Source: Candidatus Parcubacteria bacterium (GTDB lineage: Bacteria; Patescibacteriota; Patescibacteriia; Patescibacteriales; UBA12465). From it: DNA of 64,000 nt. This document shows, one piece after another, positions 4,425 through 51,013 of the stretch. The stretch lies in NCBI GenBank assembly GCA_037076615.1, contig AP029158.1, positions 636,299 to 700,298 of the forward strand, in the 5' to 3' direction. The notes under the pieces are model-generated. The model did no database searches. It was given only the letters and a program-made list of their open reading frames with translations, and was not told the origin of the DNA. Position 1 is the first letter of the stretch. Every line of letters begins with the position of its first letter. Made by a program: the position numbers and the translations under genes.

Positions 4425-6617
4425 ATGAATTTAATAATTGTTGAGTCGCCAACTAAAGCTAAGACTATTGCTAAGTTTTTAGGCAAAGATTACCAAGTCA
4501 CTTCTTCTTTTGGTCATGTTCGTGATTTGCCAAAAAGCACCATGGGCATTGAAATTGAAAATGGCTTTACTCCTAAATATGTAATCCCGACCAGCGCCCG
4601 CAAAAAGGTAAGTGACTTAAAGAAGCAGGCCGGGCAGGCAAAAAAAGTTATTCTCGCCTCCGATGAAGACCGCGAAGGTGAAGCGATCGCCTGGCATCTA
4701 AGTGAAGTTTTAAATTTAACTCCAGAAAATAGCGAACGCATTGCCTTTCACGAAATCACAAAAGAGGCAATTTTAGAGGCGCTTAAAAATCCGCGCGGCT
4801 TAGATATGAATCTGGTTGATGCGCAACAAGCGCGCCGCTTATTAGATCGCTTGGTTGGCTATGAACTGTCGCCCTTCCTTTGGAAAAAAGTTGCTAAGGG
4901 TTTATCGGCCGGGCGTGTTCAAAGTGTGGCCACGCGCTTAGTGGTTGAAAAGGAACGCGAGATTAAAAAATTTGTTGCCCAAGAATACTGGAGTTTAAGT
5001 GCTCTTTTAAAAACTGACCAAGAGGAAGATTTACGAGCAGAACTGGTTGGGGTTAAAGGAAAAACCTTAAAGCCCATGGAGTTAGATAAAGATTTAGCCG
5101 CGCAATACAAAGACACTTTGACGAAAGAAAAATATCAGGTAAAAGCCGTTAGCGCTAAGCGGGTCAAAAAAAATCCACCGGCACCGCTAACTACTTCTAC
5201 TTTACAACAAGCGGCTAATCGTCAACTAGGGTTTTCGGCCAAACAAACAATGACAATTGCTCAGAAACTTTATGAGCGCGGATTTATTACTTACATGCGT
5301 ACCGATTCGCTGAACTTGTCCGCTAAATTTCTAGAGGAGAGTCGCGCTTGGCTGGAAAAAACTTTAGGGAAATCTTACCTCCCCGAACAGCCGCGAGTCT
5401 TCAAAAAAAAGAATAAAAATGCTCAAGAGGCCCACGAAGCAATTAGGCCAACCGAGGCCAGCCGGCACCCCGACGAAGCTAAGGGCTTAGAAGGAAGCGA
5501 GCAACGTCTTTATCGTTTAATTTGGTCACGTTCCCTAGCCACACAGATGACCGCCGCCGAATTAGAAACGACCACTATTGATATTAGCGCTGGTGATTTT
5601 GACTTACGTAGCAATGGCCAAGTTTTAATTTTTAAAGGGTATCTAGAAATTTATCCCGAAAAAACCAGCGAACAAGTGTTACCCGTTGTTAAAGACGGCG
5701 CCGCCTTAAAATTAATTGCACTTCAAACCGAACAACACTTTACCAAAGCCCCGGCGCGCTATTCTGACGCCACTTTAGTTAAAGAGTTGGAGCGCCACGG
5801 CATCGGTCGCCCCTCCACTTACGCCCCAACAATCAATACCATTATTACGCGCGGTTATGTCAGCCGTGATGATAATAAACGACTGGGACCTAGCGAAATA
5901 GCCTTTATTGTTAATGATTTATTAGTTGAACACTTTCCAGAAATCGTGGATTATCAATTTACCGCTAACATGGAAAATGAATTGGACGAAGTCGCCGCCG
6001 GGAAAATTAATTGGCAGCCAGTAATTAACAACTTTTACGAAAAATTCCACGACAACTTAGAAAAAAAATATCAAGAAATAAATAAAAACGAAATTATGCC
6101 TGAAGAAAGCAGTGAGGAGGTGTGCGAAAAATGCGGCCAACCGATGATTATAAAAACAGGACGCTATGGTAAATTTTTAGCTTGTAGCGGTTTTCCGGAT
6201 TGTAAAAATATCAGATCTTTAGAAGCAGGAAAGAAAAGTGCCGACCCCAAAATCAGCGCCCTCGCCGAAAAACATAAAGATGAAAAATGCTCTAAGTGCG
6301 GCAGCCCGATGGCTGTTAAAACTGGACGTTACGGTCCTTTTTTAGCTTGTACATCTTATCCGAAATGTAAAAACATAAAAAATATTACTGACGATTCGGT
6401 GCCAGAAATAACTTGTCCAGTCTGCGGAACGGGAAAAATTGTCAAAAAGTTCAGTAAGCGCGGCGCCTTTTATGCTTGTGATAATTACCCCGATTGTAAA
6501 ACTGCTTATTACGGTCAACCGACGGGAGAAAAATGTCCGGACTGTCATAATTTGTTAATCAAAGACCGGCAAGGCAAAATTGTTTGCAGTCAAAAAAGTT
6601 GCGGTTTTGAAAAATAA
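4425..6617 (+). CDS. topA: DNA topoisomerase I with multiple C-terminal Cys4 zinc ribbons
   Basis: TOPRIM N-terminus MNLIIVESPTKAKTI...DEDREGEAIAWH, active-site region ITYMRTDS, four CxxC...CxxC modules at the C-terminus. Confidence 0.95.
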   Translation: MNLIIVESPTKAKTIAKFLGKDYQVTSSFGHVRDLPKSTMGIEIENGFTPKYVIPTSARKKVSDLKKQAGQAKKVILASDEDREGEAIAWHLSEVLNLTPENSERIAFHEITKEAILEALKNPRGLDMNLVDAQQARRLLDRLVGYELSPFLWKKVAKGLSAGRVQSVATRLVVEKEREIKKFVAQEYWSLSALLKTDQEEDLRAELVGVKGKTLKPMELDKDLAAQYKDTLTKEKYQVKAVSAKRVKKNPPAPLTTSTLQQAANRQLGFSAKQTMTIAQKLYERGFITYMRTDSLNLSAKFLEESRAWLEKTLGKSYLPEQPRVFKKKNKNAQEAHEAIRPTEASRHPDEAKGLEGSEQRLYRLIWSRSLATQMTAAELETTTIDISAGDFDLRSNGQVLIFKGYLEIYPEKTSEQVLPVVKDGAALKLIALQTEQHFTKAPARYSDATLVKELERHGIGRPSTYAPTINTIITRGYVSRDDNKRLGPSEIAFIVNDLLVEHFPEIVDYQFTANMENELDEVAAGKINWQPVINNFYEKFHDNLEKKYQEINKNEIMPEESSEEVCEKCGQPMIIKTGRYGKFLACSGFPDCKNIRSLEAGKKSADPKISALAEKHKDEKCSKCGSPMAVKTGRYGPFLACTSYPKCKNIKNITDDSVPEITCPVCGTGKIVKKFSKRGAFYACDNYPDCKTAYYGQPTGEKCPDCHNLLIKDRQGKIVCSQKSCGFEK

Positions 6618-6630
6618 TTTCTTAATTAAC

Positions 6631-6663
6631 AAAAGCCTCTCCCTAGGGAGAGGCTTTTTTTAT
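6631..6663. terminator. bidirectional terminator between convergent topA and the 6679-7047 gene
   Basis: Perfect hairpin AGCCTCTCCC-TA-GGGAGAGGCT flanked by an A-run and a T-run. Confidence 0.75.
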
Positions 6664-6678
6664 TACCAGTTTTTTTAA

Positions 6679-7047
6679 TTATTTTTTAGCTGTTTTCTTT
6701 TTGGTAGCCGATTTTTTAGCCGCACTTTTTGGGGTAGTGGATTTTTTAGCACTTGCTTTTTCCTCTTTCGCTGTCCGTCTAAAAGGACGATCCTTTAAAA
6801 AGCCGAGGACTTGGGCGGCGACCAGATTAAAGAATTTTAAATAAAGTCCACTGTCACTAAGCGTTTTTTTGACGGTCGCGGCAATCCCTTCCGCACCGTT
6901 TACAATCCGCTCCGCGCGATCGATAACTCTCTTAGCTTTAATCGTGGCAGAGATAACATAGTATAAAGCCCAGCAAAGGAAAAACGTTAGGACGATGACA
7001 CAAAAAGCGGTTACTAAATTTAAAAGATCACCGGAAGTTTCAAACAT
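6679..7047 (-). CDS. small membrane-anchored protein with Lys/Ala/Ser-rich C-terminal tail
   Basis: One hydrophobic helix (LVTAFCVIVLTFFLCWALYYVI); tail AKEEKASAKKSTTPKSAAKKSATKKKTAKK; last gene of the valS-pheST minus-strand run. Confidence 0.6.
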   Translation of the reverse strand: MFETSGDLLNLVTAFCVIVLTFFLCWALYYVISATIKAKRVIDRAERIVNGAEGIAATVKKTLSDSGLYLKFFNLVAAQVLGFLKDRPFRRTAKEEKASAKKSTTPKSAAKKSATKKKTAKK

Positions 7048-7057
7048 ATTTTTAAAA

Positions 7058-9487
7058 TTAAAAATTTCTTATTTGCGCGTCAAACTTTTCTTCTAAATGT
7101 TTGACCAACTCTTTTTGAATGGCCTCAACCTCCTCAGAACGAAGTGTGCGATCGGGGGCTTGATATTTAAGGTGAAAAGCCAAACTCTTTTTACCTTCAC
7201 CTAATTGACCACCCTGATAAGTGTCAAACAAATCAACCGCGACTAGTAAAGAATTAAACTTTTTTATTTCTTGTCTGAGATTATTATACACCATTTCACT
7301 ATTAACAACAAAAGCTAAATCGCGTTCTACCGCCGGGTATTTAGCCGGTGCTTGATATTTAAGAGCCGGACAAACAGCCAAGAGAGCTTCGAGTTCCACT
7401 AAACTCAGCTCCGCTACCGTCGTCTTCATTTTTAAACCAAGCTCTTTAGCGGTCGCAGCCGAAATGGTCGTAATCGCTCCTAGGTCACGATCATTCACCC
7501 GCAACCGGACCGTTTCATTGGGGTCACTGTAATGATAGGCGGTAGAATCTTCCGGAGAAACAAATTCTAAATCCCAAGTTTTCCCAAATAAATAGGTAAG
7601 GAGGGCGGCAACCCAACCTTTAACAACCGCAAAATTATCCGCATTTTCTTTAGTGGCGAAAAGCAGGCCTAGGCGTTTCTGTTGGTAAGGTAAGCGCTCC
7701 TGATCATCGCCGGCCTTATCAAAAATTCCCGGAGTATCAAAATAAACGCGGCCGATTTCAAATAGCGCGAGGCGAGAAAAATTAAATTGATTAGTGCGCA
7801 CATTATTTAAAAGATTAACCCCTAAATTCTGCCGCAAATAATCATATTGATCCGACAAGGGGTTAGCAATTTTTAAATAAGTGCCTTCCTCTAAACCAAG
7901 TTTTTGTAAATGATGATGGCTAACAAAACTGTAATTTTGAGTCTCGGTTAAATTTAAGGAGCCCGACAAAAAGTCTTCCAATTTTCTCTCAAGAGCTAAA
8001 TCGGCTAAGCGCAAAGGCGGAATTAAAGCGGCTCTTGGTGCTGTCGACGGCAAATTATCATACCCCCAGAAGCGCAAAATTTCTTCCAAGACATCTTCCT
8101 TTAAACGAACATCTTTAGCCGCGCGCCAACTAGGAATCACTATCAATAACTCGCCATCATTATTAGTCACTCCAAAACCTAAGCGTTCTAAAATAGAAAT
8201 GACTTTAGTTTCCGGAATTTCTTGACCGGCGCGCTCATTAATCCAGTTTAAACTCAGGGTTAGGGGGTCGCCTTCTAAATTAAATTTTTTATGATCAAAA
8301 ATTTTGCTAGCAACTTTAGCGCCAGGGGTAACTTCTTTCAGTAAAGCCCAAAAGCGGCGCAAAGCGGTTTCCGCTAAATTCGGATCTAAAGATTTTTCAA
8401 AACGCACCGACGCCTCCGTTCGCAAGCCTAACTTAGACGCTGTTTTGCGAATCGAGACTGCTTCAAAATTAGCGGCTTCCAAAATAATTTGATTAGTATT
8501 AAGAGAAACACCACTGTCTTTGCCGCCCATAACGCCAGCCACCGCGACCGGTTTTTCACCGTCAGTAATTACCAGCATCTCTTCGGTTAATTCTTTTTCT
8601 TGGCCATCTAAAAGAGTAAGCTGTTCATCCTTTTTCGCCAGTCGAACACCAATCTTCTTCACTAAGTCGCGATCAAAAGCATGTAAGGGCTGACCAGTTT
8701 CTAACATGACATAGTTAGTCAAATCAACAATATTATTAATTGGTCGTAAACCAACCGCTTGTAACCGACTTTTAAGCCACTGCGGTGATTCGGTAATTTC
8801 TAAACCCTCAATCGCTAAGGCTAAATAACGAGGACAAAGACGACCATCTTCAACTTTAACACTCAACTCCTCCTCACCCGCAATGATTTCTGTTTTTAAA
8901 AACTCGGCGTAATCTTTGACGGGCGCCTCATAGATTACTCCCAATTCTCGCGCCAAGCCATAGTGGCCCCAAAGGTCCGAGCGATTAGATAAGGACTTAT
9001 TATCAATTTCTAAAACAACATCACTCAATTTAAAATATTTAGCGAGCGGCTCACCAATCTTGGCCGTTTTATCCAAAACCATAATGCCTTCATGGTTATC
9101 GCCTAAACCCAACTCGTCTTCGGCACAAATCATTCCGGCGGAAGTAACACCTCGCAACACTGACTCTTTTATTTCTAGGCCATTAGGCAAAACCGAACCG
9201 ATCATCGCCACTGCTACTAATTGTCCGGCCGCGACATTCGGGGCGCCACAAACAATGTTTAAAACAGCAGACTTAACATCAACGGTTGTTACTCGCAAGC
9301 GATCGGCATTTGGGTGTGGTTCTACGGTTAGAACTTTTCCGACCACCACCCCCGGCCACTGCGAATCTTGTCTTTTAACGCCCTCTACTTCCACAGTGTG
9401 CATCGTGAACTTGGCGGCCACCTCTTCCGGTGTCGCCGTTTTAGGCAGTTTAATAAAATCGTTTAACCAGTCGTAAGAAATTAACAT
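7058..9487 (-). CDS. pheT: phenylalanine--tRNA ligase beta subunit
   Basis: 809 aa; N-terminal tRNA-binding OB (MLISYDWLNDF...HPNADRL), B3/4 and B5 regions, C-terminal FDX-ACB-like domain; directly downstream of pheS. Confidence 0.93.
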   Translation of the reverse strand: MLISYDWLNDFIKLPKTATPEEVAAKFTMHTVEVEGVKRQDSQWPGVVVGKVLTVEPHPNADRLRVTTVDVKSAVLNIVCGAPNVAAGQLVAVAMIGSVLPNGLEIKESVLRGVTSAGMICAEDELGLGDNHEGIMVLDKTAKIGEPLAKYFKLSDVVLEIDNKSLSNRSDLWGHYGLARELGVIYEAPVKDYAEFLKTEIIAGEEELSVKVEDGRLCPRYLALAIEGLEITESPQWLKSRLQAVGLRPINNIVDLTNYVMLETGQPLHAFDRDLVKKIGVRLAKKDEQLTLLDGQEKELTEEMLVITDGEKPVAVAGVMGGKDSGVSLNTNQIILEAANFEAVSIRKTASKLGLRTEASVRFEKSLDPNLAETALRRFWALLKEVTPGAKVASKIFDHKKFNLEGDPLTLSLNWINERAGQEIPETKVISILERLGFGVTNNDGELLIVIPSWRAAKDVRLKEDVLEEILRFWGYDNLPSTAPRAALIPPLRLADLALERKLEDFLSGSLNLTETQNYSFVSHHHLQKLGLEEGTYLKIANPLSDQYDYLRQNLGVNLLNNVRTNQFNFSRLALFEIGRVYFDTPGIFDKAGDDQERLPYQQKRLGLLFATKENADNFAVVKGWVAALLTYLFGKTWDLEFVSPEDSTAYHYSDPNETVRLRVNDRDLGAITTISAATAKELGLKMKTTVAELSLVELEALLAVCPALKYQAPAKYPAVERDLAFVVNSEMVYNNLRQEIKKFNSLLVAVDLFDTYQGGQLGEGKKSLAFHLKYQAPDRTLRSEEVEAIQKELVKHLEEKFDAQIRNF

Positions 9488-9502
9488 ATAATAAAATGCT
9501 CT

Positions 9503-10531
9503 TTAAAATTGATCTAAAAATCTTTTATCACCACTCATCAGTAAGCGGGCATCATCAATGCCATACTTCAACATTACTAACCGAGACAGGCCAAAGCCGA
9601 AGGCGAAGCCTGAATATTTTTCCGGGTCTAAGCCACCGGCGCGTAAAACATCGGGATGAATCAAACCGCAACCCAGGATCTCTAACCAACCCGACCCCTT
9701 ACAAACTCGGCACCCTTTCCCTTCACACAAGAAACAAGTGTATTCACCATTAGAACCGGGCTCGACAAAAGGATAAAACTTAGGGCGCATTCGCAATTTA
9801 GTATTAGGACCATAAAGTTTTTTTCCGACAATCTCACAAAAACTTTTGAGGTGGGCAAAATTAATATTCTCGCCCACCAGCAAGCCTTCTAATTGATAAA
9901 AGGTGTGTTCATGGCGAACATCCGTGGCTTCGTTTCTAAAGGTTCGGCCAGGAATAATGGCTTTTAAAGGCGCACCGTATTTTTTTAAAGCCCGTACTTG
10001 AGCATTAGAAGTCTGAGTGCGCATCAATAAATCATAATCACCATCCTCGTTTTTTTTGTCAACGTAAAAAGTATCCTGCATATCTCGAGCCGGATGATGT
10101 TTAGGAACATTTAGAGCTTCAAAATTGTAATAATCACTTTCTAATTCAGGGCCATCTAAAATCATAAACCCCATAGAAGTAAAAAGGTTTTCAATTTCTC
10201 GGCGCACCAAAGTGAGCGGGTGTAGATGTCCAATTTCAATTTCTTTTCCCGGCAAAGTGGCATCTGCAACAACAGCGTCTTCTGAGGCGGGGTTAAGCTG
10301 AGCATGAACTTGTTCAAACTCTTGAGTCAATTGGACTTTTAGCTTGTTAACCGCCGCTCCGAATTCTTTCCGAGCGTCACCCTCTAAGTTTTTAATTTGC
10401 CCCATTAGTTTCGCCAGCTCGCCCTTACGAGACAAAAACTGATGCTCAAAATCAAGTAATTGCTCCGGAGTTTTAATAGCCGCTAAAGCCGTAGAAAAAG
10501 TTTTTTGGAAATTGTCTAATTGTTCTTTCAT
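9503..10531 (-). CDS. pheS: phenylalanine--tRNA ligase alpha subunit
   Basis: Class II motifs HPARDMQDTFY, GRTFRNE, GFAFGFGLSRLVM; contains a CxxC...CxxC insertion. Confidence 0.93.
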   Translation of the reverse strand: MKEQLDNFQKTFSTALAAIKTPEQLLDFEHQFLSRKGELAKLMGQIKNLEGDARKEFGAAVNKLKVQLTQEFEQVHAQLNPASEDAVVADATLPGKEIEIGHLHPLTLVRREIENLFTSMGFMILDGPELESDYYNFEALNVPKHHPARDMQDTFYVDKKNEDGDYDLLMRTQTSNAQVRALKKYGAPLKAIIPGRTFRNEATDVRHEHTFYQLEGLLVGENINFAHLKSFCEIVGKKLYGPNTKLRMRPKFYPFVEPGSNGEYTCFLCEGKGCRVCKGSGWLEILGCGLIHPDVLRAGGLDPEKYSGFAFGFGLSRLVMLKYGIDDARLLMSGDKRFLDQF

Positions 10532-10539
10532 ATAAATAA

Positions 10540-10923
10540 TTAAAGTCGGTTTTTACTGGGGCGGGTTAAGATAGCCTCAATAATAATAAAAAGGGTGCCC
10601 AAAATAGCGAGATTTAACCAAGTGAATAAATTTTTTGCCAATAAGCACAAAAGAATAATAATAAAAGCGGAAAATAAGAAGGCCTGCCGATAGGCATTAC
10701 GCACTGAATAAAAAGCAAGTTCATGTTTAAGGGCGACAAAGCGGACCAAGAAACCGAAGAGTGCGGTAAAACCAAACAGGGTTAAAAATAGAGAGCCGTA
10801 AAAAAATAAAAAACCTAGCTGATTAGTGGTATTCGGATTGATGCTGCTAGCGACGTAGAGAAAAGCGGTCGCACAAACGGCCGTCGCCGTCGCGATTGCT
10901 AAGAGATAGCGTTTCAAGGTCAT
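10540..10923 (-). CDS. small polytopic membrane protein, unknown function
   Basis: Four predicted hydrophobic helices; 4-nt overlap with the valS stop suggests co-translation. Confidence 0.55.
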   Translation of the reverse strand: MTLKRYLLAIATATAVCATAFLYVASSINPNTTNQLGFLFFYGSLFLTLFGFTALFGFLVRFVALKHELAFYSVRNAYRQAFLFSAFIIILLCLLAKNLFTWLNLAILGTLFIIIEAILTRPSKNRL

Positions 10924-13541
10924 ATGGTTTCCTTTAATTTATCAAGTTCTGCTTGGTAAGCAGCGAGCTTAGCTTGTTCTTGGGCGACGATATGGGCGGG
11001 AGCACGGTTAATAAACTCCTGATTAGCCAAACGATCCTTTAAATTCGCAATTAATTTTTGGAGGTTAACTTGTTCTTTAGCAAGGCGGTTCGCTTCTTTT
11101 TCTGGATCGACAGCTTCTAAAAGATAAATGATTGTATCTTGGACAACCACTACCACCGCCTTATCCGGTCGCGGGTCTTCCCCCACTAAAGTTAAAGAGG
11201 AGAGCCCTGTTTTTAATTTAGTAATTAACTCTAAGCCCGGTTCTAAAAGATTTTTATTTTTCGGAGAAAAAGCTAATGCCGCCAACTGGCGCCCCGGCGC
11301 GACTTTATTAGCGCTACGAGCATTGCGAATCGCTACAATTAAATCACGCCACAAACTTAAAGCGGTCTTTGCCTCTGCATCAGTGATTAGCTGCGCTTGG
11401 GGCCACTGCGCCACCATTAAAATTCCTGGTCGGAAGCTTTGCCAAATCTTTTCTGTCACAAAAGGAATGAAGGGGTGCCAGAGGTGTAAGATAGCGACGA
11501 GTAAATAATTTAAAATTTCAGTTTTTCCGCCCTCAACTTTAGCAATTTCCAAATACCAATCAGCTAACTTATCTTTAGTAAATTCCGTTAAAGCTTCTGC
11601 CGCTAAAGAGAACTCAAAATTATCCAGGCGCTGACGGACTTCCGCGAAGGTGGCGCTTAACTCGGCTAAAATCCAACGGTCGGCCAGGGTTTTTGCTGGC
11701 GGGGCGGTAGTGACCTCACATTCAACCACGCCCGGCTGGCTTAAAATGTAACGAGCAATATTCCAAAGCTTATTGATAAAGTTACGTTTGGCCTCAACAC
11801 GCTCAGCGCTGTAGCGACTATCATTTCCTGGCGTACTCCCCATTAACAGGGAAAGGCGTAGAGCATCGGCCCCATAATCAGCAATCGCCAATAAGGGGTC
11901 AACGCCATTGCCCTTGCTTTTGCTCATTTTTTTACCATGCTTATCTAAAATTGTGCCGTGTAAATAAACAGTCTCAAAGGGGAGCTCGCCCAAGCAGAAC
12001 ATCGACATCATCACCATGCGCGAAACCCAGAGTGTTAAAATTTCATAGCCAGTTTCCAAAACTTGAGTCGGATGAAAACGCGCTAGGTCGCCGACTTTCT
12101 TAGCATTTTGATAATTATCAGGCCAACCCAGGGTGGAAAAAGTCCACATCCCTGAAGAAAACCAAGTATCTAAAGTATCAGGGTCCTGAGACCAGCCTTC
12201 GCCTTGGGGCGCCTGGGAGCCGCAGTAAACTTCTTCGCCGCGGTACCAAACCGGAATCGGATGCCCAAACCAAATTTGTCGCGAAATGCACCAGTCGTGC
12301 AAATTGGTCAGCCAATTTTGATAACGTTTATTAAATCTTTCCGGGACAAATTTTAAAGCTCCATCTTGAGCCACCGCTAAAGCCCTCTCTTTTAAGGATT
12401 TTCCATCTAAACGGCTTAAGGGTTTGCCCACATTAATAAACCACTGCTTAGAAGGCAGGGGTTCTATCGGCGTATCACAGCGATAACAAGTTGAGAGATT
12501 ATGACTAATCTCTTCCTCACTAATAAGTAAATTTGCCTCCTTAAGTTTATTAACGATTTTTTCCCGGGCCAAAAGAACATCAAGACCGGAATAATCACCA
12601 AATTCTTCTCTTATTAAACCTTGCTCGGAAATAACTTTAATAATTGGCAACTCATTTTCTTGAGCCATCTGCCAATCAATCATGGAATGCGCCGGCGTCA
12701 CCCCTAAAGCGCCCGTACCAAAATCCGGATCAACATTCCGATCAGCAATTACCTTCAGTTTTAGTTTTTGCCCAACAAAATCCAGCTCAAATTCTTGACC
12801 AAGATATTTTTTATAACGCTCATCTTTCGGATTAACCGCGATCGCCGTATCACCCAACTTCGTTTCTGGCCGGGTAGTGGAAATGGCAATCGGAAAATCC
12901 GGGGCATATTTAAAAGTATATAATTTAGTTGCTTGCTCACTATACTCCACCTCATCGTCGGCTAAAGTTGACTGACAATGCGGACACCAATTAACAATTC
13001 GTTCGCCCCGATAAATTACGCCCTCTTCATACATTTCTACAAATAAACGACTAACCGCCTTCTGGCGAGGCTCATCTAAAGTAAAAGCTTCTCGCGACCA
13101 ATCTAAAGAGGCGCCCATTTTACGCATTTGTCCTAAAATCTCGGATTGTGTATTTCGCAAAAATTCCCAAATTTTCTCCAAAAGAGTCTCCTTGCCTAAA
13201 TCGTGTCTAGTTTGTCCGGTCTCTTCAAAAATTTTTTTCTCAACCACCATCTGAGTAGCAATGGCGGCGTGATCAGTACCCGGAACCCAGAGCGTACGAT
13301 AACCGTTCATGCGGTGATAACGAATAAGCAGATCCTCAATCGCCAACATCGCGCTATGACCAATGTGCAGTTTTGCTGTTATATTTGGTGGCGGCAAAAT
13401 AATCGTATAGGTTTCCGCCGCCTTAGATAAAGGGGCATTGTCGGGGTTAAAAAAGCCCGAATTTTCCCACAAATGATAGATTCCATCCTCATTTTCTTGC
13501 GGCGCGTAGGTTTTACTTAGTTCTGTTTTCATACTAATCAA
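10920..13541 (-). CDS. valS: valine--tRNA ligase
   Basis: 873 aa class I ligase; HIGH-type LHIGHSAM, KMSKSKGN, C-terminal coiled coil. Confidence 0.93.
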   Translation of the reverse strand: MISMKTELSKTYAPQENEDGIYHLWENSGFFNPDNAPLSKAAETYTIILPPPNITAKLHIGHSAMLAIEDLLIRYHRMNGYRTLWVPGTDHAAIATQMVVEKKIFEETGQTRHDLGKETLLEKIWEFLRNTQSEILGQMRKMGASLDWSREAFTLDEPRQKAVSRLFVEMYEEGVIYRGERIVNWCPHCQSTLADDEVEYSEQATKLYTFKYAPDFPIAISTTRPETKLGDTAIAVNPKDERYKKYLGQEFELDFVGQKLKLKVIADRNVDPDFGTGALGVTPAHSMIDWQMAQENELPIIKVISEQGLIREEFGDYSGLDVLLAREKIVNKLKEANLLISEEEISHNLSTCYRCDTPIEPLPSKQWFINVGKPLSRLDGKSLKERALAVAQDGALKFVPERFNKRYQNWLTNLHDWCISRQIWFGHPIPVWYRGEEVYCGSQAPQGEGWSQDPDTLDTWFSSGMWTFSTLGWPDNYQNAKKVGDLARFHPTQVLETGYEILTLWVSRMVMMSMFCLGELPFETVYLHGTILDKHGKKMSKSKGNGVDPLLAIADYGADALRLSLLMGSTPGNDSRYSAERVEAKRNFINKLWNIARYILSQPGVVECEVTTAPPAKTLADRWILAELSATFAEVRQRLDNFEFSLAAEALTEFTKDKLADWYLEIAKVEGGKTEILNYLLVAILHLWHPFIPFVTEKIWQSFRPGILMVAQWPQAQLITDAEAKTALSLWRDLIVAIRNARSANKVAPGRQLAALAFSPKNKNLLEPGLELITKLKTGLSSLTLVGEDPRPDKAVVVVVQDTIIYLLEAVDPEKEANRLAKEQVNLQKLIANLKDRLANQEFINRAPAHIVAQEQAKLAAYQAELDKLKETI

Positions 13542-22451: not shown

Positions 22452-23525
22452 ATGTCTATCCATCGACCCATTTTGAGCGCCGCCTGGCGCTTGGCAACAC
22501 GCCGAAAAAAACTCTGGGTTTTTGGTTTTTTTGCCCTCCTGGTTTTTATCGGTGGCGAATACCAAATCATTAATCAGTCTTTAAATAGTGGCTGGGGTGC
22601 TAATATTTATGAACGCCTTCTTACCGGCAGCAGCTTGCCACCAGAACTCTGGACCGCACTTCTTGGCGCTCTAAGTGTTGACTGGCGCACCAGTCTAGCG
22701 GTCATCATCTTGATTCTTCTGGTTACTGGTCTCCTATTCGGGGTTCTTTGGCTCGCAGTTAAATCGCAAATTGCCCTAATTCGTTGGGCGAAAAAAGATC
22801 ACATGGGCCAAGGCGACGAAGAGATTAGTTTATGGGAAGCGTTCACAGTTAAAGATGGGCGGTTTGGTCGAGTTTTAGCAGTTGGCGTATTAGTGGAAAT
22901 TATTATTTTTGCGACCGGCGTCTTTTTAAGTTTGCCTTTAATTTATCTGTATTTTAAAAACTCTCTCTGGGCCGTCGCCGCTTACTCCTTATTCTTCTTA
23001 ATTTTAATCCCGCTGGCTGTTTCCTTTTCTCTAATCGCTAAGTACGCTATGGCGGAAATAGTTTTAAAGAAAAAAGGCTTCACTGCTAGCGTCATTAGCG
23101 CTATTGAATTATTTAAAAAGAATTGGCTGGTTAGCTTAGAAATGGCTCTGATTCTTTTCTTTATCAACTTTAGCGTCAGCTTTATAATTCTCTTCCTCTT
23201 AACTTTTGTGGCCTTCCCGATCATGCTGACTTTGATGATCTTTGACTTAGCCCTGCCGCTAGCATTACTGATTCTTACTTGTTTTCTCCTGATAGTTTCC
23301 ATCGCTTCTTTCTTAATGACCTTCCAAACGACTGCCTGGACGAACCTCTATTTGAAAATTAAAGAACACGGGGCGCCCGCTAAAATTGAAAGAATTTTTG
23401 GAAAAGGCAAAAGCCCTAAAAAAACTCAGGCAGCCAAGGCTCCTGCCAAAACTACTAAAAAGCTGGTTTCTAAAAGGCCCCGAACCACCACCGCCAAAAA
23501 AACTACTCCTAAGAAAAAATCCTAA
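22452..23525 (+). CDS. polytopic membrane protein with Lys/Thr/Pro-rich C-terminal tail
   Basis: About 6-7 hydrophobic helices; tail GKSPKKTQAAKAPAKTTKKLVSKRPRTTTAKKTTPKKKS; stop lies 3 nt before the ATPase gene start. Confidence 0.6.
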   Translation: MSIHRPILSAAWRLATRRKKLWVFGFFALLVFIGGEYQIINQSLNSGWGANIYERLLTGSSLPPELWTALLGALSVDWRTSLAVIILILLVTGLLFGVLWLAVKSQIALIRWAKKDHMGQGDEEISLWEAFTVKDGRFGRVLAVGVLVEIIIFATGVFLSLPLIYLYFKNSLWAVAAYSLFFLILIPLAVSFSLIAKYAMAEIVLKKKGFTASVISAIELFKKNWLVSLEMALILFFINFSVSFIILFLLTFVAFPIMLTLMIFDLALPLALLILTCFLLIVSIASFLMTFQTTAWTNLYLKIKEHGAPAKIERIFGKGKSPKKTQAAKAPAKTTKKLVSKRPRTTTAKKTTPKKKS

Positions 23526-23528: not shown

Positions 23529-26500
23529 ATGAATCTGAGCTCCATTGACAATTTAATTACCGACGAGGAGCCAGAAGAAGGCTCGGCGTTAGATAACTTT
23601 TCTCGAAAACAGAAAGAAATTAAAGCCCGCGAAATTGAACGCGAAGCGGAAAGACAAGCCCGACTACTCGGACTTCCTTATATTAATCTCGGTAGCTTTC
23701 CGATCAGCAGCGACGCCTTAGGTTTAGTAGAAGAAATGAGGGCTCGCGACTTAAACTTAGTTTGCTTTTTTTATGACGGCAAAGATTTTAGATTAGGGAC
23801 GACTAACCCCACGACTGAAGTAAAAGAATTTGCCGAAGAGCTCCAAAAAAAATTATACGCCAATGGAGTATTATTTTTTATCTCTGAAAATAGTTTGCAA
23901 CACGCTCTTGAGCTTTACAAAAACCTGCCGAAAGTTACCCCCTACACCGGCACGGTCGAGATCAGCCCCCAAAAATTAGTAGAGTTCCAAGAAGACTTAG
24001 CTGATTACCGCAAGTTAAACGAGCGCATCAACGAAGTTAACATCAGCGATGTTATTACTTTAATATTGGCGGCTGCCATTCGTTCCGGATCTAGCGATGT
24101 CCACGTTGAGGCGGAAGCTCGCGGCTCGGTTATTCGCCTCCGCATTGATGGCGTTTTGCACGAAGCGGCGGTGATTACTGGTGAGAAGTGGCGACGAATA
24201 GCCACCCGTCTAAAAATTCTTGCTAAGGCAAAAATTAATATCACCAATCAACCTCAGGATGGCCGTTTTAGTGTTCGCCTTGACGACCGTAAACTTGATG
24301 TCCGGTGCTCCTTTTTGCCAACAGCTTTTGGTGAGAGCGTGGTACTGCGCTTACTTGATTCTTCGGCGCAATCTTTATCTTTTGAGCGCCTGGGCTTAAG
24401 AGCAGAAGTTTTAAAAATACTCAAAGCTCAAATCAAAAAACCAAACGGCATGATTTTGACCGCCGGCCCAACTGGTTCCGGAAAAACGACGACTCTTTAT
24501 GCGATTTTAAACGAATTAAATAAACCGAATATAAAGATTATTACTCTAGAAAATCCGATTGAATATCAGTTACCCGGGATTAACCAGAGCCAAATTTCTG
24601 AAGATAAGGGCTATACTTTTGCCGAGGCCTTGCGCTCCGTCTTGCGTCAAGATCCAAATATTTTAATGGTAGGTGAAATCCGCGATTCAGAAACAGCTAA
24701 GATTGCTTTACAATCTTCAATTACTGGCCATTTAGTTTTATCAACCGTACACACCAACGATGCCGCGGGTGTGATTCCGCGCTTATTAGATTTAGAAGTT
24801 GAACCTTATCTACTGCCACCGTCTCTAAACGCCGTTATCGGGCAACGTTTAGTGCGCCGTCTTTGCCCGCACTGCCGCAAGCCTCACAAGTTGAGTAACC
24901 TCGAAAAAGAACAAATTAATAAAATTATTGGGGTCATTTCCCCCAAGTCAGGGGTGAGTGTTCCCGACCAGTTACCTCAACTCTGGAAAGTAGGCGAGGG
25001 GTGCCCGGAATGCAGTTACACCGGCTATCATGGCCGAATTGGAATTTACGAACTATTTACGATGGATGAAAAAATAAAACAGCTCACCATTGATCGGGCC
25101 CCGTCTTTTAAAATTCTCCAACAAGCCATTGAGAACGGAATGATTACCATGCTTCAAGATGGTATTTTAAAGTGCTTTGAAGGTATTACTTCAATTGAAG
25201 AGGTTTACCGTGTGGTCGGTGACTTTGATTATATCAACGAAATTTACGATATCGTTATTTCTCAAACTATTGGTCGCGGTCTAATCATCAAGGAGACGGA
25301 CCTAGCCCAAGCGAGAGAAACCACAATTGATATTAAAGCCCTTTCAGAACAGGTTAAAGTAATCTCACCCCGAGAAATTGTTAATTTAATTATGTCGCTA
25401 GCGATAGTTAAAGACGCGGGCGATGTTCATATTGAGCCCACTGACAATTTAGTTAAAGTTCGCTTCCGAATTGACGGGGTCTTACACGACATCACTAACC
25501 TCCCGAAAACTTCCTATTTACCGGTTCTAGCGGAAATGAAAATTTTAGCCGGTTTTGAAACTAACGTGAAGCGCGCCACTCTTGATGGTCGCTTTAGCTT
25601 ACACCTACCGCAACGAAAAATGGATTGTCGTATTTCGATTATCGCGGGCGGCTATGGAGAAACCATTGTAATTCGTTTATTATCGGCGGCGGCAGTGAGT
25701 CTGGATTTAGAGGAACTGGGCGTTAGCGGCCCTTCTTTTGATTGTTTGACTAAGGCGATGTCGAAGACTAAGGGTATTATTATTACGACCGGACCAACTG
25801 GCTCTGGTAAAACCACGACCCTCTACGCCATTTTGAATAAGTTAAACCGACCTGATATTAAAATTATCACCGTTGAGGATCCGATTGAGTATCAACTACC
25901 AGGAACTATTCAAACCCAGATTGATACCGAACGGGGCTACACTTTTGCCTCGGCTATGCGTTCCTTGTTGCGTCAAAATCCAAACATCATGATGATTGGT
26001 GAAATTCGCGATGCGGAAACAGCCAAAATTGCCATTGAAGCGGCCTCCACTGGCCACTTAGTGCTCTCGACGATTCATGCTAATTCGGCGGCCGGAGCGA
26101 TTTCTCGCTTCTCTGGTTTAGGTGTCGAGCGTCAAGCCCTGGCTAACGCCTTAGAATTTTCTATTGGCCAACGGTTAGTTCGACGGCTTTGTAAGCATTG
26201 CCGCCAACCCGCACACATCGATGAGGAAACACTTAGCCGCGTGCGCAGTATTTTATTACAAGTTAAAAACCCGCGAATTAAAATCCCTCAAGATTTAATA
26301 TTTTATACCGCTCCCGGCTGCGAGCACTGCAACCATATTGGCTATAAAGGAAGAGTAGGAATCTATGAGACTATTACCACCACCCCCACCATTATGAAGC
26401 TGATTCAGGATAACCTCATTACTGATTATGAGATTGAGCAAGCAGCGATTGCCGAAGGAATGGTGCCGATTGTAGTTGATGGTATCTTAAAAGCCTTAGC

Positions 26501-26540
26501 TGGAGAAACCAGTTTAGACGAAATTTTCAGAGTAATTTAA
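23529..26540 (+). CDS. tandem (double-core) GspE/PilB-family secretion/pilus ATPase
   Basis: Two complete cores. Walker A is GPTGSGKTTTLYAIL in both. Walker B regions are DPNILMVGEIRD and NPNIMMIGEIRD. His boxes are GHLVLSTVH and GHLVLSTIH. Each core has a CxxC...CxxC cluster. A T2SS-E N-terminal-like domain occurs only at the very N-terminus. Confidence 0.88.
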   Translation: MNLSSIDNLITDEEPEEGSALDNFSRKQKEIKAREIEREAERQARLLGLPYINLGSFPISSDALGLVEEMRARDLNLVCFFYDGKDFRLGTTNPTTEVKEFAEELQKKLYANGVLFFISENSLQHALELYKNLPKVTPYTGTVEISPQKLVEFQEDLADYRKLNERINEVNISDVITLILAAAIRSGSSDVHVEAEARGSVIRLRIDGVLHEAAVITGEKWRRIATRLKILAKAKINITNQPQDGRFSVRLDDRKLDVRCSFLPTAFGESVVLRLLDSSAQSLSFERLGLRAEVLKILKAQIKKPNGMILTAGPTGSGKTTTLYAILNELNKPNIKIITLENPIEYQLPGINQSQISEDKGYTFAEALRSVLRQDPNILMVGEIRDSETAKIALQSSITGHLVLSTVHTNDAAGVIPRLLDLEVEPYLLPPSLNAVIGQRLVRRLCPHCRKPHKLSNLEKEQINKIIGVISPKSGVSVPDQLPQLWKVGEGCPECSYTGYHGRIGIYELFTMDEKIKQLTIDRAPSFKILQQAIENGMITMLQDGILKCFEGITSIEEVYRVVGDFDYINEIYDIVISQTIGRGLIIKETDLAQARETTIDIKALSEQVKVISPREIVNLIMSLAIVKDAGDVHIEPTDNLVKVRFRIDGVLHDITNLPKTSYLPVLAEMKILAGFETNVKRATLDGRFSLHLPQRKMDCRISIIAGGYGETIVIRLLSAAAVSLDLEELGVSGPSFDCLTKAMSKTKGIIITTGPTGSGKTTTLYAILNKLNRPDIKIITVEDPIEYQLPGTIQTQIDTERGYTFASAMRSLLRQNPNIMMIGEIRDAETAKIAIEAASTGHLVLSTIHANSAAGAISRFSGLGVERQALANALEFSIGQRLVRRLCKHCRQPAHIDEETLSRVRSILLQVKNPRIKIPQDLIFYTAPGCEHCNHIGYKGRVGIYETITTTPTIMKLIQDNLITDYEIEQAAIAEGMVPIVVDGILKALAGETSLDEIFRVI

Positions 26541-26543: not shown

Positions 26544-27119
26544 ATGCTTAATAAGAAATTTTTTGCTGATTTAATTGCTAACTACCGGGAGCAATCCCAA
26601 TCACGACGAGAAATTATCGCCGCCACTGCCCCGATTTTGTTTGCGGCTAAAACAGCCATCTTCTCCCTACACCGAGGCGAAGAAGAAAAGGCGCGCCAAA
26701 ATTTAGAGACAGCCACTGCTGCTTTAAAAACTTTACAAACCGACTATCCGCTGGAGCGATTAGAAGAAGAAGGTGCTTACCGAGCGGCGGTTGAAGAATT
26801 TGCCGAAGCTTCGTTCTTGGAACAAGCAGTTTTAAAAAATACTTTAAGTGCTAACTCTGAGGTTACCTTAAACTACGAGGCTTACTTGGGTGGCTTATGC
26901 GATTTAGTTGGCGAGTTAGTCCGTCTAGCAACTAACCGAGCCGCGGCGGGACAACTTGAGGCGCCGGCCGAATTAAAAGTTTTGGCTGATGAGGTTTTGG
27001 CGGCATTAGCGCCGGCAAATTTTACCAGCTACCTGCGAACAAAATACGATCAAGCCAATAGCCACCTGCGCAAACTTGAACAGATGGCTTACGAAATTCG
27101 TTTACGTCAAAACGCATGA
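26544..27119 (+). CDS. translin-family protein
   Basis: 191 aa; YLGGLCDLVGELVRLATN...LRTKYDQANSHLRKLEQMAYEI matches the recalled translin/TRAX C-terminal signature (YxxGxxDxxGELxR ... LRKRYD). Confidence 0.6.
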   Translation: MLNKKFFADLIANYREQSQSRREIIAATAPILFAAKTAIFSLHRGEEEKARQNLETATAALKTLQTDYPLERLEEEGAYRAAVEEFAEASFLEQAVLKNTLSANSEVTLNYEAYLGGLCDLVGELVRLATNRAAAGQLEAPAELKVLADEVLAALAPANFTSYLRTKYDQANSHLRKLEQMAYEIRLRQNA

Positions 27120-27610
27120 GCTTAGTGGCGATTTTTTCCGACCTGCATGACAACCTAAATAACTTAGATTTATTTTTAACTAAGGCCCGCGCCCAAAAAG
27201 TCGCGGCCCTTATTTTTACCGGCGACTTAACGAGCGCCGAAACCTTGAATTATCTTGCCTCGCAGTGGGACAAGCCGCTTTATTTAGTTGGCGGCAATGC
27301 CGACCTCTTTCGAAGCACTGATACTAAAAAGCGCCCCCACCTTATTTATGACGAGAATTATTTAGATTTTACTTACGAGAATTTTGACTTCTTAATTGCC
27401 CACAAGCCGACTGATTTAAAAAAAATTCTCGCTACTAACACTGTTTACGATTTCGCTTTTTACGGTCACACCCACCGCCCTTGGATAAAAAATGAAGGCG
27501 GCGTAATTATCGCCAACCCCGGTAATTTAAAAGATGGGTTCGGCCAAGCCACCTACGCTCTTTTAGATACGAGGAGTGGCTACTTAAAATTAAAAAGACT
27601 AAGTGATTAA
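27116..27610 (+). CDS. YfcE/MJ0936-type metallophosphoesterase
   Basis: Motifs SDLHDN, GDL, GGNAD, YGHTHRP; 4-nt overlap with the upstream gene. Confidence 0.8.
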   Translation: MSLVAIFSDLHDNLNNLDLFLTKARAQKVAALIFTGDLTSAETLNYLASQWDKPLYLVGGNADLFRSTDTKKRPHLIYDENYLDFTYENFDFLIAHKPTDLKKILATNTVYDFAFYGHTHRPWIKNEGGVIIANPGNLKDGFGQATYALLDTRSGYLKLKRLSD

Positions 27611-38070: not shown

Positions 38071-38628
38071 ATGTTAAGTATCAGCGAAATCAAGCCGGGA
38101 CGAGTGATTAAAGTCAATAATCAGCCCTACGTCGTCACCAAAACCGATCATCATAAAATGGGTCGCGGCGGGGCCGTTTTAAAAACTAAGCTTCGTAACC
38201 TTATTGACGGTCGTGTTCTCGATCAAACCTTTCAAGGGGTTCAGCAAGCCGAAGAAGCAGAAACAGAAACAAAAAAAGCTAACTATCTTTACAAAGATGC
38301 TGAGCAAGTTTTTTTCATGGACAATCAATCGTTTGAGCAATTTAGTTTAGATCTAGAGTCCATTGGCGACCAAGCCAAATTCTTAAAAGATGGCACCGAT
38401 GTCTCCGTTCTCTATTTTGAGGGCAAACCAGTGACCATTGAACTACCAATTAAAATGGAGTTTAAAGTTGTTTCTGCGCCCCCTGGCGTTAAAGGTAATT
38501 CTGCTGGCAACGTTAATAAACAAGTAGAAATTGAAACTGGCGCCACCATCTCCGTACCGATGTTTATCAATGAAGGTGATATTATTAGAATCAATACGGA
38601 AAGCGGCGATTACGTGGAACGCGCTTAA
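38071..38628 (+). CDS. efp: elongation factor P
   Basis: 185 aa; KPGRVIKVNNQPYVV...HHKMGRGGAVLKTKLRNL; three-domain length. Confidence 0.92.
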   Translation: MLSISEIKPGRVIKVNNQPYVVTKTDHHKMGRGGAVLKTKLRNLIDGRVLDQTFQGVQQAEEAETETKKANYLYKDAEQVFFMDNQSFEQFSLDLESIGDQAKFLKDGTDVSVLYFEGKPVTIELPIKMEFKVVSAPPGVKGNSAGNVNKQVEIETGATISVPMFINEGDIIRINTESGDYVERA

Positions 38629-42078: not shown

Positions 42079-43197
42079 ATGAAGAAAATAATTTCTGAAA
42101 ATATATTGAAAAATGCACGGAATGATGCAATTGAATTTGTAGAAGCAAATGGTCAAAACAGTTTGTATCCATCATTCTATGATGCAGATAGTTATGTTAA
42201 CGATTTGGTGAATGACAAATATTTTGCCGCACTAGCGATTGTCCGTCACTATGTAAAATTAATGAGTGATGCATACTGGTCAGATTTTGGTGCAGTCAAC
42301 ATAGATCTTTTTATGTTGACCTCAAGCGCCTCATCTCCTATGGGACCAGGATCCGACTCTGAGGTAATAAATATTCAATTTGGTAAATATCAAACCAATC
42401 TCACTGACTCATCACAATTTGGTTTTGAGCCGCTTATGTTTCATCTCGATAAAGCGTACTGTTATTTACCATCTATGCGGGGTGAGAATCCTGACGCTCG
42501 ACACATTAACCAGTTCTTTCATTGTGAAGCGGAAATAACCGGAACACTCGATAAATTGTTGCCGTCTGTTGAGAACTATGTACAGGCACTCGCCAGAATA
42601 TTTATAGCGCTCACACCAGTCGTGAAGCTTATTAGTATAGATTTTTTCAAAACAAAACAGGCGCTACAAAATATTATTAACGCTAAGAGTTTCAATAAAA
42701 AAACTTTTGATGAGGTGTATCAGTGGTTACAAAAAAATCCCTTATTCCACTCGGCAAATAATTTTGGAAGAAATATTACCAGCAGTGGCGAAATAGCGCT
42801 TGCTCAAGAGATGGGAGGTGAGCTACCTATCTGGCTCTGTAATTACGATAGGGATATCACTCCTTTTTACCAAAAACCAGATCCGCAAAATACAAATAGA
42901 GTTATAAATGCGGATCTGTTATTTCCACCAATTATAGAGGGCGGTTTCGGAGGTGAAATCGTTGGTTCTGGGCAACGACAAGATAATCCTGAAGAAATTA
43001 TCGAGTCTCTCAAAAGACAAAAAATCGATAGTGAACCTTATGAGTGGTACATCAATCTCCGCAAACAACCAAACTACAAAATAACATCTGGTTTTGGATT
43101 AGGAATAGAAAGATTTATTGCCTGGGCACTTGGATATTCTGATATTAAAAATGTCATTCATTATCCACGACTTAAAAATATTAAAACACTGCCATAA
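42079..43197 (+). CDS. class IIb aminoacyl-tRNA-synthetase-like ligase (AsnRS/AspRS-type catalytic core, no anticodon-binding domain)
   Basis: Motif 2 PSMRGENPDARHINQFFHCEAE (compare AsnRS FRAE...RHLAEFWMIEPE). Motif 3 GSGQRQ...SGFGLGIERFIAWALGYSDIKNVIHYPR. Only about 45 aa precede the core, so there is no OB fold. Confidence 0.8.
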   Translation: MKKIISENILKNARNDAIEFVEANGQNSLYPSFYDADSYVNDLVNDKYFAALAIVRHYVKLMSDAYWSDFGAVNIDLFMLTSSASSPMGPGSDSEVINIQFGKYQTNLTDSSQFGFEPLMFHLDKAYCYLPSMRGENPDARHINQFFHCEAEITGTLDKLLPSVENYVQALARIFIALTPVVKLISIDFFKTKQALQNIINAKSFNKKTFDEVYQWLQKNPLFHSANNFGRNITSSGEIALAQEMGGELPIWLCNYDRDITPFYQKPDPQNTNRVINADLLFPPIIEGGFGGEIVGSGQRQDNPEEIIESLKRQKIDSEPYEWYINLRKQPNYKITSGFGLGIERFIAWALGYSDIKNVIHYPRLKNIKTLP

Positions 43198-47312: not shown

Positions 47313-47816
47313 TTGGTTAGAAATAATTTAATCAGATCTAGAAGTCCTTGGAAAAAATGGCATTATTCTTTGCCTCGTCCAATATCTGAAAAACTGGGTG
47401 ATTTACTACAAATTGATACAGTTCATTTTTTAACTAGTGATGGTGAAAGATTTTATGTCTATACTATAATTGTTTTATATTCTCGTTGGGCTTATGCTAA
47501 AGTTGTCAAAAAGATAAGTGCTGATAGAAGTGCCCGATTCGTGAAAGAAGCTAAGAGAAAATCATCTTTCAATTTTGAAATGACTCGATCTGATCATGGT
47601 CCAGAATTTAGTTCTTGGTTCACTAATGAATTAATTAGATTAAATATATCTCATAGACATTCTAGAATCAGAAAGTGTAACGACAATGCTCATATTGAAA
47701 GATTTAATCGGACTATTCAGGAAGAATGTTTTGGAATAGATAGACCAGTTAGTTATGATAGATATTTATCTTTAATTAATTATTATCAAGACTATAATAA
47801 GCATAATTTTATTTAA
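47313..47816 (+). mobile_element. 5'-truncated DDE (rve, IS481/IS3-like) transposase remnant
   Basis: Integrase core LQIDTVHF...SDHGPEF...NAHIERFNRTIQEE (D, D, E). The N-terminal HTH domain is missing and the in-frame upstream sequence hits a stop at about 47284. Confidence 0.75.
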
Positions 47817-47891
47817 TATAAGACAAAAAATTTCAGAATAATTAATTTATCTCGAAAAAGCCAATGAAAAATTAAAATTATTATTTGATTA

Positions 47892-47923
47892 AAACCATTC
47901 CAACTATGTCCCACCCTCTCCGC
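47892..47923. repeat. right copy of the 32-bp imperfect direct repeat
   Basis: See 41535-41566; lies about 75 nt after the transposase remnant. Confidence 0.8.
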
Positions 47924-47980
47924 CAGAAGAACTAAGTATCGGTATAATCCGAGTACTTAAATTGGGGTATTTAAGCTAAA

Positions 47981-48913
47981 ATGAACAATGTGGAAAAGTT
48001 TGAACAGATAAAATCTAGTCATTTAGAAAATCAAGAGTCGTTAAAAAACCTGCAACGGCAACTGCATTTTGATGGTGTTGAATTATTACCCGGACAGGAA
48101 TTTCCTATAAATATTCACGTTCGAAAAGAACCGATTGAAATTAAAGACGGAGATAGTTTAGAATTATTGTCACTTATGGAAGAAGCTGAAAAGTTAGCAG
48201 AATTTCCTGAGGAAGAACGTCTTACGGCTTTAATAGAACTAGTACGCAGTAAACTCAAATACCCATATCCTGATGTTATGGAGGCTTCGGGAGCAGAGAA
48301 TCCTGAATTGAAAGAATGGCTTGAAAAAAGATTTGGGCTAAATCCGAGTATTTGGAAACTTGAACTTAACGATTTACTAAAAAATGGATTTGGCGATTGT
48401 AAGATTATGGCTGCAGCTTATCTTATAGCGGCGCAATCTGCAAAAATTAAAGGTATTTATGCAAATAGCGGAGTCAGTCTTAAAAACATTGTTAGATCTG
48501 ACATCAGCAAGCCGATATTTAAATCGGTAGAACTAGATCGGGATACAAATTCAGCCCACGAATGGGTTAAAATTCAATTATCAGACGGGAGATTGATTCC
48601 AGTCGACCCAACAACCAATATGGTTGGCTTAGGAGAAATGATAGCGGTTTTTAGGCAAGCTGGTTATAACGTTCCAGTTACTTTCAAATCTGAAGTTCCT
48701 TCTGATTTAGAGCTGGAACGCGATGGTGCCGCTTTCGCTCCAGGAGAAACAGAAAAAAGACTGAATTTAAAGTTAAAAATTGGATCAGTAATGAGTTTTG
48801 GTGAGGGCGCATCTACAAAAAGATTGAAAACTGATAAATTTTCTGGAGATGTAGATGTAAAATTTAATTCAAATACAGATTCTAAAAGTACAAACCTTGA
48901 TTTTTTGGATTAA
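47981..48913 (+). CDS. transglutaminase-like cysteine protease fold protein
   Basis: Putative Cys-His-Asp triad in NGFGDCKIMAAAYL ... SAHEWVKIQLSDGRLIPVDPT. Confidence 0.55.
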   Translation: MNNVEKFEQIKSSHLENQESLKNLQRQLHFDGVELLPGQEFPINIHVRKEPIEIKDGDSLELLSLMEEAEKLAEFPEEERLTALIELVRSKLKYPYPDVMEASGAENPELKEWLEKRFGLNPSIWKLELNDLLKNGFGDCKIMAAAYLIAAQSAKIKGIYANSGVSLKNIVRSDISKPIFKSVELDRDTNSAHEWVKIQLSDGRLIPVDPTTNMVGLGEMIAVFRQAGYNVPVTFKSEVPSDLELERDGAAFAPGETEKRLNLKLKIGSVMSFGEGASTKRLKTDKFSGDVDVKFNSNTDSKSTNLDFLD

Positions 48914-49447: not shown

Positions 49448-49508
49448 AAAAATCGCCACTGACGAGGACTGAGCTAGTGTTTAAATTATTATTTAATATT
49501 TAAAAAAT

Positions 49509-51002: not shown

Positions 51003-51013
51003 AAAATTACAAT

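Follow-up and report, generated by a model that had tools for sequence, protein, structure and literature searches.

PilB/GspE motors are thought to be homohexamers in which opposite sites fire together, and the identity of their subunits makes site-by-site roles hard to probe. A gene of Candidatus Parcubacteria bacterium (NCBI GenBank assembly GCA_037076615.1) raises the question of whether two such motor cores can be joined in a single chain and, if so, what kind of ring such a chain would build. The gene lies in a 64,000-nucleotide stretch of contig AP029158.1 (positions 636,299 to 700,298 of the forward strand; here called the window), and a sequence-only reading of this stretch had claimed that its 1003-amino-acid (aa) product is a covalent duplication of two complete motor cores, of which only the first carries an N-terminal type II secretion system E (T2SS-E)-type domain. 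Both claims hold, and we refer to the product as the two-core protein.

The gene is a single ATG-start open reading frame (ORF) of 1003 codons plus a stop, without internal stops (Table 1), and its product is identical to GenBank BFD25302.1, [quoted passage not shown] encoded on a 717-kb contig; that annotation hides the two-core architecture. Pfam T2SSE (PF00437) matches the protein in two stretches (750 bits against a cut-off of 24.9; combined E, 3.7e-226), and a BLASTP comparison of residues 1-565 with residues 566-1003 gives 44% identity over 424 residues (E, 5e-126). As the NCBIfam totals of 860 bits for TIGR02538 PilB (cut-off, 676) and 879 bits for TIGR02533 GspE (cut-off, 630) both add up the two cores, they do not separate PilB from GspE or show per-core membership. 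Residues 45-563 align to positions 78-584 of the full-length PilB chains 6olj/5tsg, from the N1 region onward, which places the N-terminal domain in the first half only; residues 614-1000 align to the PilF ATPase, and PF05157 is a precomputed match in many homologs. The N1 alignment itself covers residues 45 to about 135, and copy 2 retains only the equivalent of the final N1 helix. Hence, with CTD standing for the C-terminal domain, the layout is N1-[N2-CTD]-connector helix-[N2-CTD] in one polypeptide. All sequence and fold criteria that we applied place the two-core protein in the PilB/GspE family. PilT structures match it far more weakly (E, ~1e-31; 24-25% identity), and a PilT/PilU retraction ATPase, which has no N1, no tetracysteine, and a length of about 350 aa, was rejected as an identity because the two-core protein has an N1 domain and both zinc sites.

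A profile-profile alignment of the family (hhalign; 98.5% probability; E, 1.7e-15) pairs residues 123-200 with residues 566-642, so that the repeat reaches back to about residue 123. The N2 part carries most of the significance of this alignment, so that the pairing of its first ~20 positions is no more than suggestive. On the hhalign reading, copy 2 (residues 566-1003) would start exactly where copy 1 (residues 123-565) stops, as in a clean head-to-tail internal duplication. The connector helix, which the AlphaFold2 (AF2) model places at residues 567-580 in a segment also conserved in the family profile, would then be the duplicated last N1 helix and not a newly evolved linker. The junction had earlier been put at about nucleotides 25240-25300; its position is slightly upstream of that, at residues 565/566 (nucleotides 25223/25224).

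Such a protein could in principle be an artifact of assembly or annotation that joins two adjacent pilB genes across a missed stop or frameshift. We therefore searched species-representative genomes with a junction-spanning query (residues 501-700) and fetched 80 of the at least 134 matched loci. The identical junction is contiguous in at least 134 species-representative genomes from independent projects, including a closed Falkowbacteria chromosome (L054; CP066698.1). An intact ORF of 1003-1013 aa was found in 76 of the 80 fetched loci; in three of the remaining four the ORF runs off a contig end, and in the fourth (L048) it is interrupted within copy 1 and not at the junction. In a collection of 5.8 billion proteins, the best 120 clusters at 90% identity are all 1003-1007 aa long, with 100% query coverage and 63-96% identity, and derive from NCBI, JGI, ENA, and Logan assemblies. 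Further, the ratio of nonsynonymous to synonymous substitution rates (dN/dS; Nei-Gojobori method, against the three closest relatives of the window gene) falls within 0.037-0.045 in copy 1 and 0.035-0.043 in copy 2, and within 0.025-0.05 in residues 550-590 around the junction, with many synonymous differences among relatives and the frame kept throughout. Both copies are thus under equally strong purifying selection, and the occurrence of the junction in so many species genomes, together with purifying selection across it, makes the fusion genuine and excludes an artifact. Locus L048 is of separate interest: the break within copy 1 leaves its two-core gene (positions 4488-7509) as two ORFs, of 239 aa and 742 aa, and the gene may be a pseudogene, may have split secondarily, or may contain a frameshift error. 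An internal restart yielding a separate second protein is not supported, as residues 566-621 contain no Met either here or in a 72-sequence family consensus.

If the fusion is genuine, are both cores competent? Each half carries GPTGSGKTTT (Walker A), IIT(L/V)E(N/D)PIEY (Asp box), GEIRD (Walker B), and TGHLVLST(V/I)H(T/A)N (His box), as well as a DGR...R.S...R.L arginine block and two CxxC pairs. Across 200 distinct sequences with two cores, conservation in both copies is 94-100% for the eight cysteines and for the invariant positions of the Walker A, Asp-box, Walker B, and His-box motifs. The Walker A Lys, the Asp-box and Walker B Glu, and the His-box His reach at least 98.5% in both, and most other motif positions 90-100%. 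All eight cysteines are 100% conserved except in copy 2 of one divergent representative (P0132), and the Walker A Lys is present in 199 of the 200 sequences in copy 1 (K319) and in all 200 in copy 2 (K761). We also mapped the functional residues of Geobacter metallireducens PilB (PilB_Gm; PMC5424180) by residue alignment (SEQRES index minus 20). Given with their equivalents in copy 1/copy 2, these are R257 (R246/R688), R271 (R259/R701), R286 (R274/R716), T327 (T315/T757), K331 (K319/K761), E357 (E345/E787), E395 (E383/E825), the pore-loop residues D398 (D386/D828) and E400 (E388/E830), T411 (T399/T841), H413 (H401/H843), H420 (H408/H850), and R455 (R443/R885). Each of the 13 is kept in at least 197 of the 200 sequences in both copies, so that the equivalents of the phosphate-sensing arginines, of T411/H413/H420, and of the pore-loop acidic residues, which have been proposed to act on PilC (PMC5424180), are all present twice. 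No nucleotide-binding, catalytic, phosphate-sensing, zinc-binding, or pore-loop residue is missing from either copy, and both are apparently active. The earlier claim that both halves look catalytically competent therefore extends to 200 homologs, and the systematic loss of catalytic residues in one half, which would have reduced the novelty of the finding, was not seen in their alignment.

The two-core form is not confined to the window. An exhaustive HMMER scan of 1.84 billion representatives clustered at 50% identity returned 14 two-core clusters (978-1047 aa; 35-58% identity), the next matches being ordinary PilBs of ~550 aa; at 90% identity, the form comprises at least 120 clusters. Named members belong to Candidatus Paceibacterota or the Parcubacteria group, including KKU82539.1 (GW2011_GWA2_47_8), and the fused form is a vertically inherited variant widespread in Patescibacteria (Parcubacteria/Falkowbacteria/Paceibacterota). 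Many records of metagenome-assembled genomes (MAGs) that hold a gene and synteny of the Patescibacteria type (L002, L004, L007, and others) are titled “uncultured Gammaproteobacteria bacterium,” and L072 is titled Planctomycetota and L045 Saccharimonadales. Such titles are probably placeholder or misassigned organism names.

Within the query clade, identity is 56-76% within the same copy versus 44-48% across copies, and in a neighbor-joining tree the copy-1 and copy-2 groups are each monophyletic (bootstrap, 100). Most copy-2 sequences of all lineages fall into one clade (bootstrap, 59), which points to a single old fusion behind most two-core proteins. In three proteins (P0127, P0129, and P0135), the two copies are each other's sisters (bootstraps of 100, 100, and 98, respectively) and are nested among single-core PilBs, which favors separate or younger duplications. 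Full-length gene conversion or concerted evolution is a less favored alternative for P0127 and P0129 (L084). Against conversion, sliding identity between the copies of these two proteins is raised uniformly and without a mosaic, the copies of P0127 being 70% identical to each other, and a single-core relative (P0176; L089) occupies the same PilB-RuvB-YebC-RuvC slot as P0127 (L081). P0135 (L082, positions 8001-11144; GCA_964384625.1) is a 1047-aa two-core PilB-like protein in which the first core has lost the Walker A Lys (GSGTTT) and its Asp box is degenerate, which suggests a duplication of separate origin with one half becoming noncatalytic. An extracytoplasmic function (ECF) sigma/anti-sigma pair lies immediately upstream of its gene and MoxR/BatA genes are close by, a setting that differs from the Patescibacteria neighborhoods. 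A phylogeny of each half, which the sequence-only reading had proposed, thus suggests mostly one old fusion, with three proteins as possible separate or younger duplications.

How would a two-core chain build a ring? The canonical PilB ring consists of N2(n)-CTD(n+1) packing units, in which two diametrically opposite ATPs are hydrolyzed synchronously with rotation steps of 60 degrees (PMC5424180). Our overall reading, which we consider probable, is that three two-core chains form one six-site ring with copies 1 and 2 alternating, in line with the trimer of pseudo-dimers that the sequence-only reading had reasonably suggested. The chain would have been created by an internal tandem duplication of residues ~123-565, and the ring would keep the packing units of canonical PilB while carrying three N1 domains instead of six. 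Under a C2 cycle with two sites firing at a time, each copy 1 would lie diametrically opposite a copy 2. Hence both copies would have to hydrolyze ATP, a requirement that would account for the preservation of both. The two-core ATPase would power pilin polymerization in a type IV or competence-type (DNA-uptake) pilus, with platform proteins encoded elsewhere in the genome, a role that we infer from the 44% identity to bona fide PilB.

Several observations weigh against this proposal. No pilC, pilM, pilD, or pilin gene was found in the window or in 11 related neighborhoods (9 two-core and 2 single-core); the window likewise contains no T2SSE ATPase other than the two-core gene, no T2SSF/PilC, PilM, or PilD match, and no prepilin signal motif in its ORFs, so that the pilus role is drawn from homology and not from gene context. 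The AF2 single-chain model has a mean predicted local distance difference test score (pLDDT) of 78.3 and a predicted template modeling score (pTM) of only 0.47, which makes the relative placement of the two cores uncertain, and the connector of ~48 residues is long enough for other arrangements.

One such arrangement is a stacked double ring, in which six chains would place a copy-1 ring on a copy-2 ring to give a 12-site machine, as in KaiC, p97, and NSF. Stacking is common where one chain carries tandem ATPase domains (KaiC and p97 being general examples), the structured connector from the copy-1 C terminus to the copy-2 N2 domain could bridge two tiers, and the low pTM leaves the intercore geometry open. 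We nevertheless regard stacking as unlikely, as it has no precedent among solved PilT/GspE family structures and a duplicated and fused subunit of a homo-oligomer usually preserves the ancestral ring; it also argues mildly against stacking that both copies have invariant acidic pore-loop residues, proposed to act on PilC, although a distal tier would have difficulty reaching the membrane platform. Alternatively, one copy might be a regulatory pseudo-ATPase, comparable to alpha versus beta in F1, with the other alone hydrolyzing ATP. The distant two-core protein P0135, with its lost copy-1 Walker A Lys and partly lost Asp box, shows that such a trajectory is possible, but all catalytic residues are kept in both copies in the query clade and in 12 other 50%-identity clusters, and dN/dS is equal in the two copies, which leaves this explanation very little credence.

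Gene context raises the further question of whether the protein is a pilus motor at all. Divergent two-core lineages and two single-core relatives carry the gene within a housekeeping block, with dnaA-dnaN, polA, tsaE, and a DHH phosphoesterase gene upstream (PolX also being recurrent there) and ruvB, yebC, ruvC, and tyrS downstream. The shared block makes these genes one orthologous “orphan” PilB group of Patescibacteria, in which some lineages have one core and others two. A non-pilus, orphan PilB-like ATPase might thus have been recruited to DNA processing or uptake together with ruvB/ruvC/polA, by analogy with PINA, an archaeal PilT-like branch-migration ATPase. The gene was never found beside pilus genes in the neighborhoods examined, TsaE/PolA/PolX/DHH and RuvB/RuvC genes flank it repeatedly, and translin-like, phosphoesterase, and UvrA genes accompany it in the window. 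Moreover, Thermus thermophilus PilF binds DNA and RNA (PMC3583032). Even so, such a recruitment seems quite improbable to us, given the 44% identity to bona fide PilB and the intact N1 domain, zinc tetracysteines, and PilC-facing pore residues. The neighbors of the gene are generic housekeeping genes of very small genomes, with dnaA, dnaN, and aminoacyl-tRNA synthetase genes in the same block, so that the synteny may have no bearing on function. A more speculative proposal, which we would hold only as a long shot, is that covalent pairing forces a C3-type cycle or a division of labor between the copies unlike the canonical C2 cycle, and/or that the orphan motor works with the ruv/pol, translin-like, and phosphoesterase genes as a DNA-uptake or DNA-processing engine; in that event, the recurrent duplication seen in P0127, P0129, and P0135 would point to selection for the paired architecture itself. 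The alternating six-site ring of a pilus motor remains the reading that we prefer.

In the query clade, the gene order is membrane protein, two-core ATPase, translin-like gene, metallophosphoesterase, and then uvrA on the opposite strand (Table 1), and these four neighbors are kept in 77, 76, 75, and 67 of the 80 loci, respectively. The Translin-family protein is named “predicted translin family RNA/ssDNA-binding protein” in one source; to our knowledge, characterized translins come from eukaryotes and archaea. The membrane protein, whose family appears to be restricted to Patescibacteria, has no Pfam, NCBIfam, or PDB sequence match and ends in a basic, Lys/Thr-rich tail of 52 residues with 18 Lys/Arg and one acidic residue. 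Its AF2 model is all helical, and the only hints at a family are a weak choline-transporter-like fold match (E, ~0.08) and a weak match to DUF7544. We rejected it as a divergent PilC/GspF platform, as it has no T2SSF match and the fold search gave only that weak hit, and we do not treat it as a general partner of the ATPase, as it is absent upstream of the divergent two-core genes. TsaE (53902-54324, -) directly precedes the two-core ATPase in several other lineages yet here lies 30 kb from it, which implies a relocation of the ATPase in the query clade; the window tsaE is divergent to genes for an ECF-type sigma factor and a 550-aa ORF without a Pfam match (together at 54376-56534, +).

Table 1. 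Position and support of the two-core gene, its parts, and its neighbors in the window
Feature	Positions	Strand	Basis
Two-core PilB/GspE-family ATPase gene	23529..26540	+	ORF, Pfam, identity to BFD25302.1
N1 (GSPII/T2SSE_N-type) domain, residues ~45-132, once per chain	23661..23924	+	Alignment to PilB N1; alpha/beta secondary structure in AF2 model
Repeat copy 1, residues 123-565: last N1 helix, linker, N2, C-terminal ATPase domain with Zn tetracysteine	23895..25223	+	Half alignment, hhalign, Foldseek
Repeat copy 2, residues 566-1003: last N1 helix equivalent, linker, N2, ATPase domain with Zn tetracysteine	25224..26537	+	Half alignment, hhalign
Conserved connector helix, residues 567-580, putatively homologous to N1 helix 120-132	25227..25268	+	Conservation profile, AF2 helix, hhalign, junction dN/dS
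Walker A of copy 1, GPTGSGKTTT, residues 313-322	24465..24494	+	90-100% conserved per position
Walker A of copy 2, GPTGSGKTTT, residues 755-764	25791..25820	+	97-100% conserved per position
Polytopic membrane protein, 357 aa, upstream, co-oriented, 3-nucleotide gap	22452..23525	+	Clade-specific synteny, 77/80 loci
Translin-family gene, downstream, co-oriented, 3-nucleotide gap	26544..27119	+	Pfam Translin, E 8.8e-18
Metallophosphoesterase (Metallophos_2), overlapping the translin-like gene by 4 nucleotides	27116..27610	+	Pfam

Two other regions of the window deserve mention. An rve-type integrase fragment of 167 aa with a TTG start (47313-47816, +) is followed by ORFs without a Pfam match at 47981-51832 (310, 297, and 272 aa), and the region 47313-51832 may be a remnant of a mobile element. 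Elsewhere, a short class II tRNA-synt_2 protein of 372 aa (42079-43197, +) is encoded a few kilobases from elongation factor P (EF-P; 38071-38628, +); it may lack an anticodon-binding domain, which would recall an EF-P modifier of the EpmA/PoxA type.

The episymbiotic lifestyle of Patescibacteria and their acquisition of DNA depend on type IV pili, so that the fusion, widespread in these ultra-small bacteria, probably belongs to a core trait of the lineage. Two distinguishable, linked cores would allow alternate ring positions to be mutated independently, and a two-core ring would show whether only three N-terminal partner-binding domains are tolerated.

No PDB chain contains two such cores (best query-normalized template modeling [TM] score, 0.35), and a tandem PilB/GspE is undescribed in the full-text literature searched, including papers on the pili of candidate phyla radiation (CPR) bacteria (PMC6744442 and PMC12206443) and a survey of archaeal type IV pili (PMC4858521), in keeping with the earlier statement that no characterized example was known. 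The sequence-only reading had also allowed that such fusions might be common and already described: common they are in databases (14 clusters at 50% identity), but no description was found. Two-core PilB is common in nature and long public under generic names, apparently undescribed but not rare.

Compared with known systems, the two-core protein most resembles G. metallireducens PilB (5TSG/5TSH/6OLJ), to which each core is ~44% identical with a Foldseek target-normalized TM score of 0.85-0.87 for the AF2 model, and with which it shares the N1-N2-CTD layout and the catalytic, arginine, His-box, pore-loop, and zinc-binding cysteine residues. It departs from the family in protomer architecture and operon context: canonical PilB has one core per chain, forms a homohexamer, and is encoded in pilus operons, whereas here one N1 domain serves two cores in a chain encoded outside such operons. 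Vibrio GspE/EpsE (1P9R, 4KSR/4KSS, and 4PHT) shares the T2SSE fold and the tetracysteine metal site (E, ~1e-96) but has a single core, and its crystal hexamers needed an engineered Hcp1 fusion, whereas the two-core protein is a natural covalent dimer. The outer-membrane secretin has been reported to be lacking in CPR bacteria (PMC6744442). T. thermophilus PilF (5IT5, 5OIU, and 6F8L), a transformation pilus ATPase of the PilB family, also has a duplicated region in one chain and a link to DNA uptake, but only its N-terminal GSPII domains are multiplied and its ATPase core is single. KaiC, p97, and NSF are well-established cases of two covalently linked P-loop ATPase modules; they belong to other families, and their rings stack, whereas we favor an in-plane ring for two-core PilB. 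The alpha3beta3 ring of F1-ATPase and engineered, covalently linked ClpX are six-site rings of alternating paralogous or linked subunits. In F1, one paralog is noncatalytic and the chains are separate, whereas the two-core copies both look catalytic and are fused; the alternation in F1 and linked ClpX nonetheless provides a working analogy for a trimer of pseudo-dimers.

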